A DNA stretch of 64,000 nucleotides from the IMG/VR virus record IMGVR_UViG_2721755646_000010. One strand, written 5' to 3'. Positions 15,001-21,000 of this stretch are shown here, piece after piece. Source of the DNA: a virus. Lineage: Duplodnaviria > Heunggongvirae > Uroviricota > Caudoviricetes. Positions within the stretch are counted from its first letter, which is position 1. The number at the start of each line of letters is the position of its first letter. Made by a program: the position numbers.

Positions 15001-18000
15001 GAAAACATGGCCGGACATGGGATCGTCTTTCAGCGCCGTTTGTACTTTCGCAGCCAGGCCGTTGAAGCCATTTCTCATATCGGTGATACCGGCAACCAGC
15101 CAAATTTTGGTCCCGGAAGGTAACGGGATCATCGCTTCAGTTCCTGTATCAGCAGAGTCAGGAGCTTTTCGCTGACATTGCCATTGAAGCGGAGCGTCCC
15201 GTGCCGGAACGTTACCTCACAGCTGATACTGAGGGTTTCCGGGTCCTCTGCGAGCGATTCTGGCTGTTCGGCAGCTGCATCGAGAGTCACAGGAAGTAGC
15301 TGGGGGCTCTCTGAAGAAGGTAATAGCAGCTTTCCCTCGCGCCATTGTTGTCGCCATTTGAACAACAGATTGGCGTTAATGCCATTTTCAAGAGCAAGTT
15401 TTGAGATGGATATCCCGGGTTCACAGGAGGCAGCAACGAGCTGCTGTTTAAATTCGGGAGGATAATTAGGGCAGCCTTTTCGCCTGCCGGGAGTCACATT
15501 TTTCTGCATATCTGATACTTTGGTTCCCACTACTTATTTGGTGGACACCACTTTGTCTAATTCGTCAGATTCTGACCAGACGGTTCAGGCTGTACGCTTA
15601 CCTGATGTCTCACCGGCGCTGGTATCGAAGGTCACCGATGCCGTTATGGAGCAGGTAGTCGAATGGCAAAACCGGCCACTGGATGCGGTCTATCCCATTG
15701 TTTATCTTGACTGTATTGTCCTGAAGGTTCGGCAGGACAGTCGCGTAATCAATAAATCCGTATTCCTCGCACTGGGTATCAATATCGAAGGCCAGAAAGA
15801 GTTACTGGGTATGTGGCTGGCCGAAAACGAGGGAGCGAAGTTCTGGCTCAATGTGCTGACTGAACTAAAAAACCGCGGCCTGAACGATATTCTCATAGCC
15901 TGTGTCGACGGGCTGAAAGGCTTCCCGGACGCTATCAACACGGTGTATCCGGAAGCCCGCATCCAGCTGTGCATCGTGCATATGGTGCGCAACAGCCTGC
16001 GGTTCGTTTCCTGGAAGGACTACAAAGCCGTCACCCGCGACCTGAAAGCCATCTACCAGGCCCCCACAGAAGAAGCAGGCCAGCAGGCGCTGGAAGCGTT
16101 CGCCAGCGCCTGGGACAGTCGCTACCCGCAGATAAGCCGGAGCTGGCAGGCAAACTGGACCAACCTGGCGATGTTCTTCGCTTACCCGGCAGATATCCGC
16201 AAAGTCATCTACACAACCAACGCCATCGAGTCGCTGAACAGCGTAATCCGGCATGCCATCAAAAAACGCAAGGTGTTCCCGACGGATGACTCAGTGAAAA
16301 AGGTCGTGTGGCTGGCAATCCAGGCGGCTTCACAGAAATGGACGATGCCACTGCGGGACTGGCGTATGGCAATGAGCCGCTTTATTATCGAGTTCGGTGA
16401 CCGCCTGGACGGTCACTTCTGAGAAAAGGCATTTACACAGAATCGTGTACAGGGTCGATTTTACTCGTTAATTAGCGAACAAACCACTCGTCAGCAGACT
16501 CCCAGGTATCTTTCAGCGTCTCCTGAACAAAAGTTTTTGCAGAATCTTTATCGGCGGTGCGAGTAACTGAAAGGCCATCGTTGCTGGTGGATTTGATGAT
16601 CACTTCTACATCGTCATAACGTTTACTGACACGTCGCAGCATTTCTTGTTGCAGGGCAGGAACAGAACCTTTTGGCATTTTGTTGATTTTGGCTGCGGGG
16701 TATCTGTGGGGCATATATGGGACATAAAAAGGCCTCAAATAAACAGCAAAATCGAGATTAGGGATTTTTAGAAAAAATACAACCATCTGAAAAAACTTAG
16801 AAAACACCCAAAAACCCACAGAATAGTAAAAAACATCTATGAATTATGGATTTCAAGAGTCATTCAATCTAACTAATTGATAAATAAAAAATTAACTTTT
16901 CATCGCTTCGTTATGGGGCATGGTTGGGGCAAACTCGCTTAACTGTGTATTTAACAGCGTTACCTGCGCATTATTATTTTCTGACATCCATTTCCCGTAC
17001 ACCTGAAACACCATTTGCGCATCTGCATGGCCCATCTGGTTTGCAATGAATGCCGGGTTAGCTCCTGCTGTTAACGACCAGCAGGCATAAGTGTGTCTCG
17101 ACTGATACGATTTGCGATGGCGGATTCCGGCACGCTTTACCGCTGCGTCCCACATCTGCCTTATTGAGTCAACGGTAAAATGGTCGCCATAATTTTTTAC
17201 TTTCGCTGACACTTCAGGTTGAAAAACAAAGGTACATTTTTGTTTCTCTGTTCTGCCGAATTCTCTGAGGTGAACATCGATGATATGCTCTTTGCTCAGT
17301 CTCGTTAGTGCCATCTGACTCCGGAGAGCGTCGATTGCGGGCTTAATAAGGTGAATCACACGATTGGTTCCCGCCTGTGTTTTTGGTACTGTAAAACGGT
17401 CTTTTGCCAGATTTCTTCTGATTATCATTCTGCCATTGCGCAAGATGGTTGCGGTTTTTCTTCATCATTTTCTTCTTCTGTTTCCTGCTTAGCAGACAGT
17501 TCGCGGTTAACTTCTTCCAGGATATCTTTTTCCGGTGTATGTCGTGCAGCAGTGAGAGTTTCCTTGCTGGGGTTCTCGTGATCAGTCTCCGTTAAGTAGG
17601 CGTTGATATACCCCTGAAGGCGTCCCGGGTAGTGATAAAACTCAGGGTGAGCGCTCCGGATAAGTGCAAAAATAGCGGCGCGGGAATAGTCCAGAATACC
17701 CGGGGTTGCGCGAAGTGCTGCGGACCATTCTTTGAACGGACTTTCTCTTTTCAGGACGATTTCTTTTGCGCGACGATAAACGCTGCCCGGAATTTCATAA
17801 ATATTAAAATCCATCGGAAGTGTGGCTGCTGCAATCTCCACATCCAGCGTATCGAAGGTGTGTACTAAATTCGGATTGCGATCGGTTTTGTTCCCGCCAC
17901 CGGCATTTGCACCGGAAGCCGTACGGGTGATACGCGAAACACGATTTCCTTTCATCCACTCTTTTGTCAGCAGACCCCGATCAGTGTAGTCAGCGTCCAG

Positions 18001-21000
18001 GTATGCCTCGAAAAAAGCAGTTATCAGTCCCAGGTCTGAATTACCGGGATTAGGGAAAACTTTGTCAGTGTCGCGTACCAGTTTGTGAAGGTCGCGAATC
18101 TCCAGCGGGTCGAGCAGCTTTGTTTTGTGAGAAATGGCCAGGGCAGTAACAGCCGGCAGTTCTTCCGCCCGTGCTATATGTAATGCCTGAAGTTCTTCCC
18201 GTGCAACGTGCGTTACTGGTTTTTCGCTGCCGTGTTGCGCAAGCCAGCGAATGGGCAGCTCCTGACCAGAAACCGGCAGGAGCATATTCTCCTCAATCTC
18301 CGTCATGTCTTCGCCGTTGACGTTGGTATTGTCAGTACTGGCTGGTTTCTCCTGCACGGAGGGAGAGGGCGCGATAAATACCATTGTAATGCCATCTTCC
18401 CCGCCTTTTTCGTATCGGTTGCAGAATTCGGTATCAAACACGCCTTCAGGTGGAAGGTCATTCACAACGGGTAAATGGACGCGAACGGGTTTTTTAAAGT
18501 CGTCTTCATCATAATCGTTGTCATCCATTGCGGTAATGCAGCGGGAGATGGCAACAGATAATTTTTTTGCTGTAGTCCAGTAAAAACCACCTTTAATTCC
18601 CAGACGTTTTCTGACTTTGTCATTTTTTGCTTCGCAATATAGCGCAAATTCTTCTTTATCAGTGCTCATTGATAAACCTCATTACAGATTTAAGGGTGAA
18701 CAAATCCCTGCCATTGCTGGCATTTTTAATCCGTTGGTATGGTGTTAATATGGCTGGAGGGTTATCCAGCCGGTGTTTCGTTATTCAGGTACAGCGATAC
18801 TTTTTTTACCGGGAGGCATTCACCAGAAATTTTTTGCTCGTCTCTTGCCTGGAGGCAGGATTCTTTACTGGCATAAATTCCGGTAATCACATTCTGTGAT
18901 TCACCCGTTATAAGAAAAACCGTCATCATCAGTGCAAATGCTGAAGTCATTGACGTTCTCCGAAAATACCAAGTTCAAGAAGAGCAATTCGGGAAAGTAT
19001 GGAATTATCATTGAGCAGATAAGGCTCATATTTCCTCATGTTAATGGCATCTTCAGTAAACTCCCGGTTACTGAGCAGAACACCAATATCAAAACAACCT
19101 TCAGACGTATTAACGTTTGGTAATAACGTTTCCATTATCGCGTCCTCAACAATGAATTTTGTGATGCAGTGCCTGGTGCCTCCAGGTGACGTTAACCAGT
19201 TAACAATTAACGCCGGATACAGAGAATCCACCCATAACACTGTTTTTGGTTTTAACTGTTCCGCGTGCGCTTAGCCGCATTCACCGCATCACAAAATTCA
19301 CTTTAAAAAGGGCGGCAGAGCAGCCACGGAGTAAAACTGATACCGCCAAACGTCACCAGAAAATTGATAACAGAGGGCGTTGCAGCGGGGTTGTCACTTA
19401 AGCGTATGGTCAACCTGACAACCCGGTGTCCTCAATGGGGAAGGAATAACCCCGCCATACTTACCGCCGCGCCATTTCGCGGAGTGCCACAACCGGAAGC
19501 GCACGTTCGAAGAAATCTAACGACAAGCCTTCTAAGGGAAAGAGCTTCGCCGTACGCTTTCGCGTTATGCACTGACTTTTCAGGGAAATATCCTTTCAGT
19601 AAACTGTCAGTACCGGATTCTTATCCGTGTCCGGCGCACGACCACACGTGACAGCGTGTTGGTCTCCATTTTTAACCCAGAACCTCAATGGAGGATAAAA
19701 TGCCAAACAAAAAAAGAAATCCGCTTATTGAAAAACAGATTGAATGCCTGGTAAATCAACTCAGGCAATCAGGGTTATTAAAAACTCATTCAGAGTTGAG
19801 GCTCACAGAATCAGCATTCGACGATAAATTAAATAATGTCCTTTATAATGGCATTATTGATTTTAATCGTTCTGTTGGTCGCCGCGGCCCTGCTGGTGTT
19901 TCCTTATAATTACCAGTCAATCCAGAGTGGACCGTGTTCAGCGTAAATATAACTGTACACATCCAGATTATATTTGTGGTCTGTTAAGAACAGGCCGCAA
20001 ATACATGCCGAAGCTTCCAGTGCAGCGGCTCTGTTACTGAATAACCATGTAGCAACATTCCAGCGTTTTTCTGCATCCCAGTCTTTCTCAAGGCCTGATA
20101 CCATGAAGAAACCGTTAGTGTTGCCATCAAATAATTCTGTTTCCAAATTTTTAAGCAATGCCTGATGGACTCTTGCCAGGTATTCCGCCGGAATTTCGCC
20201 ACGAATTCTGATGAGATTGTCATAAACAAACATGTTCCCCGCATATGGCGATTTTTCTTTCTTGTTTTTTAAACCAGCATCATGAGCAAACTGATCAATT
20301 TCTTCTTCCGTTGGTTTCGTATTGATGTTTTGCGCTGTCGTTTCTGCAATTTTATTTGCCACACTCTCTGAGTCGTGTTTATTTATAGACGCACAGAAAT
20401 ACAATCCGGTAAACGCATCGCGCACATTACGAGCCATATTATCAGTGTCTTTTTTCGTTACCGATTCCAATTCAAGTTCGTTCAGACGATGACGAAGTGT
20501 GTGTGCTGCAATCTCCTGGATTGAAGGAGGTAAATCTTTAAATTCCATCGTCAACCTCATCAGTCAGTGTTTCTGGCTAACCAGCGACGCGCGCCAGCTT
20601 CAGTTTTAAACGTTTTGCTTTTGGTATACGTCATCGCGGTGAACGTACCGTCCTGGTTGGGGAACACGCCACATACCAGAGATTCGTTGTTGCCAAGATT
20701 GAGCGTATCCATGTTGACCTCATTTCCCCTTAACGCCGGGGTAGCGGAACAAAAACCTGCTGCATAGTTATTAAAGTTGAACCCTGCCGTCATGTTCTTA
20801 CGCCTCGGGCTGGCTACTTAACCCCTGACCACTGCCTGGTAACTCGAAGTATTGCCCTGCATTCTGTGGGGCGGGGTGAGGGAATGAATGAAGTTTAGAA
20901 AAACGAACATTTAAGGTCAATGTTTTTTTATCAAAACATTTTAAGCAGGCAGCTGTTACGCCATCACTACGATGGCATACAGTTAATCAAATAGATGAGG

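Follow-up and report, generated by a model that had tools for sequence, protein, structure and literature searches.

The closest described counterpart of the element studied here is Sp11, a lambda-like prophage of Escherichia coli O157:H7 Sakai. According to Asadulghani et al. 2009, Int of Sp11 is defective, Xis is absent and the ExoVIII-type recombination system is not intact, and its replication, morphogenesis, packaging and lysis functions were scored as conserved (PMC2669165). The same study predicted Sp11 to be non-excisable, and circularisation, replication and packaging were all negative in Sakai with and without mitomycin C (PMC2669165, Table 2). In related phages and prophages the left arm follows the order dicB - ydfD - exonuclease (813-823 residues) - xis - int, the exonuclease-xis-int part of it being found in phages vB_EcoS-640R1 (ON470612) and PhiR42_1 (PV340562) and in a prophage of E. 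coli Z1323HEC0422. Here we compare with these systems the left arm of prophage 2 in a stretch of 64,000 nucleotides of viral DNA (Caudoviricetes; IMG/VR record IMGVR_UViG_2721755646_000010), the whole of which is called the window below. At 16892-18669 this arm carries two open reading frames (ORFs) on the same strand, overlapping by 19 bp: the 3' part of an integrase gene (int') and an ORF of 414 residues (exo'). Our analysis indicates, with high confidence, that they are the two stumps of a single illegitimate deletion of 2,321 bp, associated with microhomology, which grounded the prophage.

Both ORFs appear in the ORF list where the first-pass annotation of the window, made from the sequence alone, had placed them, and its view that the integrase is reduced to a C-terminal part is borne out. 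The minus-strand ORF of 183 residues at 16892-17443 matches the Pfam family Phage_integrase PF00589 (E 5.4e-9, 36.5 bits with a cut-off of 27.1), at profile positions 52-165 of 172 only, as well as PHROG 216, integrase (E 1.5e-39), and contains all the motifs quoted in that annotation (VPKTQAG, SRHTYA, MGHAD and VYGKW). Aligned with residues 249-431 of the intact integrase of Z1323HEC0422 (431 residues), it is identical to it in 181 of 183 residues. The integrase homology stops at 17437, the TTG at 17443 being a mechanical ORF start only, and what remains of this Qin/Sp11-type tyrosine integrase is its last ~181 codons, for residues ~251-431 of 431. Hence the interval 16892..17443, given earlier as the integrase region, is correct for the ORF and slightly too long for the homology, and the catalytic domain within it is incomplete, since int' begins past the Arg of box I.

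The intact integrase of Z1323HEC0422 consists of an Arm-DNA-bind_2 domain (residues 9-71), a SAM-like core-binding domain (residues 85-190) and the catalytic part. Directly upstream of int' its frame contains stop codons, and no arm-binding or core-binding domain is found there in frame. The remnant retains K269, R364, H387 and Y397, while catalytic Arg I (R235 of box I, in TGIRPGE of the intact protein) falls in the deleted part, so that the catalytic set of int' is not complete; we take these residues to be the catalytic ones by their motif positions in the family and not from experiment. Thus, int' is a member of the tyrosine recombinases by its match to the catalytic profile, and lacks both DNA-binding domains of lambda-type integrases.

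In the upstream ORF the first-pass annotation had recognised no motif apart from an acidic tail. The tail is present, and corresponds to the acidic mid-protein linker of a full-length exonuclease, but the ORF is not without identity: it is the 5' half of a gene for an ExoVIII-type exonuclease. It matches Pfam Exonuc_VIII PF06630 (E 1.6e-34; residues 57-189 only), NCBIfam PRK09709, exodeoxyribonuclease VIII (9e-186; profile positions 1-409 of 877, with 619 bits, below the full-length cut-off of 1269), and PHROG 607 (1e-194; profile positions 1-402 of 883). In a tblastn search its residues 1-413 align at 92.7% identity with the first half of the 813-residue exonuclease of vB_EcoS-640R1, and 410 of 415 aligned positions are identical to the N-terminus of the Z1323HEC0422 exonuclease. 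The ORF is thus made of residues 1-413 of an 820-residue ExoVIII/RecE-family exonuclease, one junction-derived codon, and a stop codon from int sequence.

These identities bear on the alternative that the annotation itself had proposed to check by alignment to full-length integrases, namely, that the pair represents one integrase gene split by a frameshift or nonsense mutation. Two ORFs on the same strand with a 19 bp overlap are the layout expected of a frameshift. Still, this explanation has virtually no chance of being correct, as the 414-residue ORF shows no similarity to integrases and matches exonuclease VIII families instead (1e-34 to 1e-194), shares 99% identity with residues 1-413 of the 820-residue exonuclease, and the N-terminal 250 residues of the integrase are missing from the whole window (tblastn). 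The frameshifted integrase is therefore refuted by the comparison with Z1323HEC0422 together with the exonuclease identity of the upstream ORF.

The intact prophage of Z1323HEC0422 (NZ_CP148339, 691-704 kb), found by a spread listing of E. coli genomes, served as the reference for the deletion. It carries int adjoining rspB (product WP_001206148.1), xis (83 residues, DUF1233 family; product WP_000005551.1) and the exonuclease gene (820 residues). The phages vB_EcoS-640R1 and PhiR42_1 share only 85-88% DNA identity with the window and give a fuzzy junction, and Z1323HEC0422 was therefore preferred. A blastn comparison of the window with this prophage yields two blocks, 16840-17437 (99.3% identity) and 17429-20888 (99.1%), whose coordinate offsets differ by 2,321 bp, which is the segment missing from the window. 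At the junction these blocks overlap, and neither inserted bases nor filler DNA is present. The coding-strand sequence of the junction is AATGGCAGAATGA, derived from AATGGCAGATGA in the exonuclease gene and AATGGAACAATGA in int; in a longer context, the exonuclease gene has GCAATGGCAGATGAACAG, int has AAAAATGGAACAATGATAATC, and the window has GCAATGGCAGAATGATAATC. The crossover sits within an imperfect microhomology of 12/13 nt, AATGGnAnA(A)TGA.

Compared with Z1323HEC0422, the removed DNA covers exonuclease codons 414-820, the entire xis gene, and int codons 1 to ~250. A tblastn search of the whole window for xis, the int N-terminus and the exonuclease C-terminus returned nothing significant (best E 0.06). 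The statement that the left arm has no xis and no recombination genes is accordingly right for xis, while a remnant of a recombination gene is present: exo' was cut by the same deletion as int, the two ORFs being the two ends of one scar. We infer one deletion event, driven by the microhomology. Positions of the features discussed here and below are collected in the table.

Table. Features of the prophage 2 left arm and of its boundaries in the window.
Feature	Position	Strand	Evidence and remarks
int' remnant	16892..17437	-	Pfam and PHROG matches, alignment with the Z1323HEC0422 integrase, domain map of the intact protein, Sakai annotation
exo' remnant	17425..18669	-	family matches to the N-terminal half, alignment with the Z1323HEC0422 exonuclease, domains of the intact protein, Sakai annotation
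Deletion junction	17429..17437	.	blastn and base-by-base comparison with Z1323HEC0422 and with vB_EcoS-640R1 and PhiR42_1
attL core of prophage 2 (Sp11)	16840..16854	.	TGAATTATGGATTTC; boundary with the right end of prophage 1 (Sp12)
attR core of prophage 2	62711..62725	.	15-mer identical to the attL core TGAATTATGGATTTC
398-bp exact direct repeat, left copy (dinI-like gene and att core)	16457..16854		
398-bp exact direct repeat, right copy	62328..62725		
Host gene ydfJ, 5'-truncated	62717-64000		match to major facilitator superfamily symporter/transporter; ydfJ pseudogene in Sakai
DUF1482 gene (ydfD-like)	18762-18950	-	RefSeq annotation of TW14359, identical in sequence; PHROG
dicB	18947-19135	-	RefSeq annotation of TW14359, identical in sequence; PHROG
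DicF small RNA gene	19310..19361	-	Rfam RF00039, 75 bits (gathering threshold 48), full length 1-52
CI-type repressor ORF	21005..21643	-	212 residues, helix-turn-helix and Peptidase_S24; immunity region bounding the left arm

An insertion sequence (IS) could have made the deletion, by insertion and adjacent deletion with later loss of the element, or the two genes could have been cut in two separate events, as in K-12 Qin, where the parallel layout is exo' (256 codons) - IS2 fragment - intQ'. In support of this, IS629 is abundant in O157, exo' of some O157 strains contains IS1203/IS629 ~100 bp from the junction, and ISEc8 with an IS256-family fragment lies 0.5 kb away. However, no IS end, target duplication or filler is seen at the junction, where the exonuclease and int homologies overlap; precise IS excision is rare, and there is nothing at the junction to excise from. 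Moreover, the IS629 of strain 2159 lies within exo', off the junction, and is missing from most genomes, which makes it secondary. The chance that the scar arose in this way is very slender.

The preferred reading, one seamless deletion, is also consistent with the distribution of the junction. Of 5,426 complete E. coli genomes, 224 contain an exact copy of the 120-bp sequence at 17375-17494 that spans it, with a single location per listed genome, while other genomes matching this query carry one half of it only. Among the full-coverage matches, those with a serotype label are O157 or O157:H7, and the region around the two ORFs is 100% identical in many O157:H7 chromosomes. The identical junction in 224 genomes means that the scar is real and not an assembly artefact, and it is most simply explained as inherited once in the O157:H7 lineage. 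Secondary changes have also been observed: IS1203/IS629 is inserted inside exo', ~100 bp from the junction, in O157:H7 strain 2159 and at least seven other genomes, and in strain F3113 the junction query matches the int side only, which suggests further decay there.

Alternatively, exo' may have been retained as a functional gene instead of being a dead remnant. Under this explanation the N-terminal ExoVIII-like module of ~400 residues would be an autonomous unit, kept when the nuclease domain, xis and int go, and the 414-residue ORF a domesticated gene, possibly co-translated with the C-terminal Int fragment. The ORF has 414 open codons, unchanged across the 224 genomes, and N-terminal-only versions recur, such as K-12 ydfE' and PHROG 6528 ('exonuclease', 348 positions, an end-to-end match to residues 1-332 of the ORF). 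The pairing of the N-terminal module with different nuclease domains in different phages also suggests an autonomous module. In addition, an ATGA is observed at 17425-17428 (minus strand), where the TGA stop of exo' overlaps the ATG of Int Met254, a layout classic for coupling of termination and reinitiation. On the other hand, identity in 224 genomes reflects clonal descent of O157:H7 and carries no signal of selection, both ORFs are pseudogenes according to RefSeq and to the Sakai authors, and IS629 within the ORF is tolerated in some strains. The ATGA is native to int, and its overlap with the exo' stop is probably a coincidence of frame, both codons being native int sequence; an Int fragment starting at Met254 would lack Arg I anyway, and would have no DNA-binding domain at all. 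A domesticated gene thus has a slender chance of being the correct explanation, and the same holds for its co-translation with int'.

What was lost with the second half of the exonuclease can be judged by the intact relative. The 820-residue protein of Z1323HEC0422 (locus 7693-10155) has a C-terminal Rv2179c-like DEDDh 3'-5' exonuclease domain at residues 639-810 (2e-67), which is preceded by a Cys-rich motif resembling a zinc ribbon; both would have been removed by the deletion. As a member of the ExoVIII/RecE family, the 414-residue ORF has the N-terminal Exonuc_VIII region and ends at residue 414, before any C-terminal nuclease domain. A PDB sequence search with the intact exonuclease gave only weak matches (E 1.7e-6) to the C-terminal nuclease domain and none for the N-terminal module. 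In RefSeq the homologues are named variously 'recE', 'exonuclease' or '3'-5' exonuclease', pointing to a single N-terminal module that has been combined with various nuclease domains.

The catalytic domain of RecE, encoded by the Rac prophage, is a C-terminal PD-(D/E)XK nuclease, and its partner is RecT. RecE and the 414-residue ORF have in common the N-terminal 'Exonuc_VIII' region PF06630, from which the family takes its name. In contrast to RecE, the closest intact relative of this ORF terminates in the DEDDh Rv2179c-like domain, and no recT is annotated adjoining the exonuclease gene in vB_EcoS-640R1, PhiR42_1 or Z1323HEC0422. The label 'RecE family' rests on the N-terminal region, and calling the ORF 'RecE' overstates the kinship.

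The prophage can be identified as Sp11. The window corresponds, in reverse complement, to the stretch of Sakai running from the right end of Sp12 through Sp11 to ydfJ: positions 16571-59377 are collinear with Sakai 2204371-2161567 at 99.6% identity, and 59462-64000 match Sakai 2161573-2157035. Sp12 is thus found on the int side of the prophage and ydfJ on the other. The 414-residue ORF corresponds to the Sakai pseudogene ECs_2216 'exonuclease' (2202273-2203517), and int' to the pseudogene ECs_2217 'integrase' (2203514-2204050), both within the Sakai feature 'prophage Sp11, lambda-like phage' (Sp11 start 2158311). In the RefSeq annotation of strain TW14359 the integrase is likewise described as missing its N-terminus, and the RecE-family exonuclease as missing its C-terminus. 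DicF, dicB, DUF1482, DUF1391, matches to DicA- and DicC-like proteins, and ydfJ at the right end are the features of a Qin-type prophage. In Z1323HEC0422 and K-12, rspB adjoins int; the window does not reach the rspB side of the tandem array. The prophage is a Qin-type lambdoid, Sp11, integrated at the rspB/ydfJ site in tandem with Sp12.

The 15-bp att core is delimited by the overlap of the int-side homology with Z1323HEC0422, which starts at 16840, and the identity of the repeats, which extends to 16854; the Sakai Sp11/Sp12 boundary (2204088/9) maps to the attL core. Both cores are intact. With int truncated and xis gone, the prophage is locked in spite of them, and it is very probably unable to excise itself, in agreement with the first-pass annotation, which had suggested an excision test by polymerase chain reaction after mitomycin C. 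For O157 Sakai this experiment, with and without mitomycin C, has been published, and it was negative for Sp11 (PMC2669165, Table 2).

Several points weigh against so simple an account. Non-excision was tested in Sakai and not in the strain of the window, which differs from it by ~0.4% and an IS629 copy. Excision may still occur rarely, through Int supplied in trans or by homologous recombination between the 398-bp repeats. These repeats are the common right end of the tandem Sp12 and Sp11, and their copies bracket prophage 2 (45.9 kb), which would make them a ready substrate for RecA-dependent, integrase-independent loss of Sp11; a passage of PMC7430833, citing Chen et al. 2013, mentions spontaneous laboratory deletions involving Sp11 and Sp12. 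As for the deletion, the microhomology is short and imperfect, and does not establish replication slippage as opposed to other illegitimate joining. The ancestor is represented by a 99% relative and not by the true parent, and, as left arms of lambdoids are mosaic, the deleted segment could have differed in detail.

Taking these points into account, the events may be pictured as follows. The ancestral arm would have had the order dicB - ydfD - exonuclease (820 residues) - xis (83 residues) - int (431 residues) - attL. A break and rejoining in the 12/13-nt microhomology would have fused exonuclease codon 413 to int codon ~251, out of frame, so that a single deletion took away the zinc ribbon and nuclease domain from the exonuclease, the whole xis gene, and, from Int, both DNA-binding domains (arm and core) and the first catalytic Arg. 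The remaining enzymes would be incapable of site-specific recombination, locking the prophage despite intact 15-bp att cores, and its remaining cargo, namely the dicB-DicF operon, pchB, the nleG effectors and a complete-looking late region, would stay fixed in the chromosome.

The stretch separating the 414-residue ORF from the repressor gene holds the DicF gene and ORFs of 62, 62, 73, 216 and 77 residues, which roughly agrees with the earlier description of only small ORFs up to the immunity region. The DUF1482 gene and dicB are intact and located upstream of exo' in a leftward operon, with the DicF gene upstream of dicB. The same interval contains a 73-residue ORF on the opposite strand, a 216-residue ORF (PHROG 2151, function unknown) and a DUF1391 (ydfA-like) gene. 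When the left-arm ORFs were scanned against PHROG, the only matches apart from those to exonuclease, integrase, DinI and repressor were to families of unknown function. In Z1323HEC0422 the set between the repressor and exonuclease genes is the same (DUF1391, a 212-residue ORF, dicB, DUF1482), and no N is annotated there. N was found neither among the annotated left-arm genes of Z1323HEC0422 or Sakai nor in the PHROG scan of the left-arm ORFs, with no dedicated search for N made. The lack of N, which had been listed together with the loss of xis, is therefore not decay in Sp11, because an intact 99% relative has the same gene set.

Sakai has the same repressor gene DNA; nevertheless, in the Sakai and RefSeq annotations the protein is limited to its C-terminal 112 residues, and the Sp11 repressor has been termed 'disrupted' (PMC2669165). 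A protein 98% identical to the 212-residue repressor is annotated as a 199-residue cI in vB_EcoS-640R1. The repressor reads Ala-Ala (QQAASW) at the position where relatives of its type, as we presume, usually have an Ala-Gly self-cleavage site. On the other side of the att core, between nleG7 of prophage 1 and the dinI-like gene, nested insertion sequences are observed at 13197-16422: ISEc8 (IS66 family, tnpA-tnpB-tnpC) sits in, and splits, a transposase gene of the IS256 family.

The defect, the pseudogene status of both ORFs and the non-excision of Sp11 have already been published or annotated. The additions made here are the exact junction, the microhomology, the size of 2,321 bp, measured against a relative that is intact and 99% identical, and the number of genomes bearing the scar. 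They offer a base-by-base reason why an O157:H7 prophage with virulence cargo (nleG effectors, pchB, DicF/dicB) is fixed in the chromosome, and a clean example of one small deletion grounding an otherwise complete-looking phage.

In comparison with known systems, Sakai Sp11 is the same locus as prophage 2 of the window, the ORF coordinates mapping exactly and the Sp11/Sp12 boundary coinciding with the att core. The differences are an IS629 in the neighbouring dinI-like gene, present in Sakai and absent from the window, a tail-fibre ORF that is intact in the window and a pseudogene in the Sakai annotation, and 149 mismatches across Sp11. The earlier opinion that morphogenesis, lysis and replication look intact agrees with their scoring as conserved (PMC2669165), and late-gene ORF sizes in the window match the Sakai Sp11 annotation. 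It does not apply to every strain: TW14359 is identical to the window around int' and exo', but diverges from window position 35188 (position 38788 of the compared TW14359 segment) onward. There its lysis and head region is truncated, the holin gene being followed directly by truncated YdfR and capsid genes and by a frameshifted portal gene of the Sp12 head type. Owing to this divergence, Sakai was used instead of TW14359 as the reference for the whole prophage, and the intactness of the late region is strain-specific.

Z1323HEC0422, PhiR42_1 and vB_EcoS-640R1 have the same left-arm order and the same integrase type as Sp11, and, unlike Sp11, keep the 2.3-kb segment with the C-terminal half of the exonuclease, xis (DUF1233) and the N-terminal 250 codons of int. 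K-12 Qin shares with Sp11 its att region on the rspB side and its dicB-ydfD-exonuclease-int arm, and has also lost the 3' part of the exonuclease gene, xis and the 5' end of int, its exonuclease stump ydfE' lying next to intQ'. However, the endpoints are different, as exo' of Qin has 256 codons and intQ' is 1,164 bp long with only ~43 codons missing, and the Qin junction contains a truncated IS2, whereas the O157 junction is seamless. The loss in K-12 Qin is thus an independent, parallel event.

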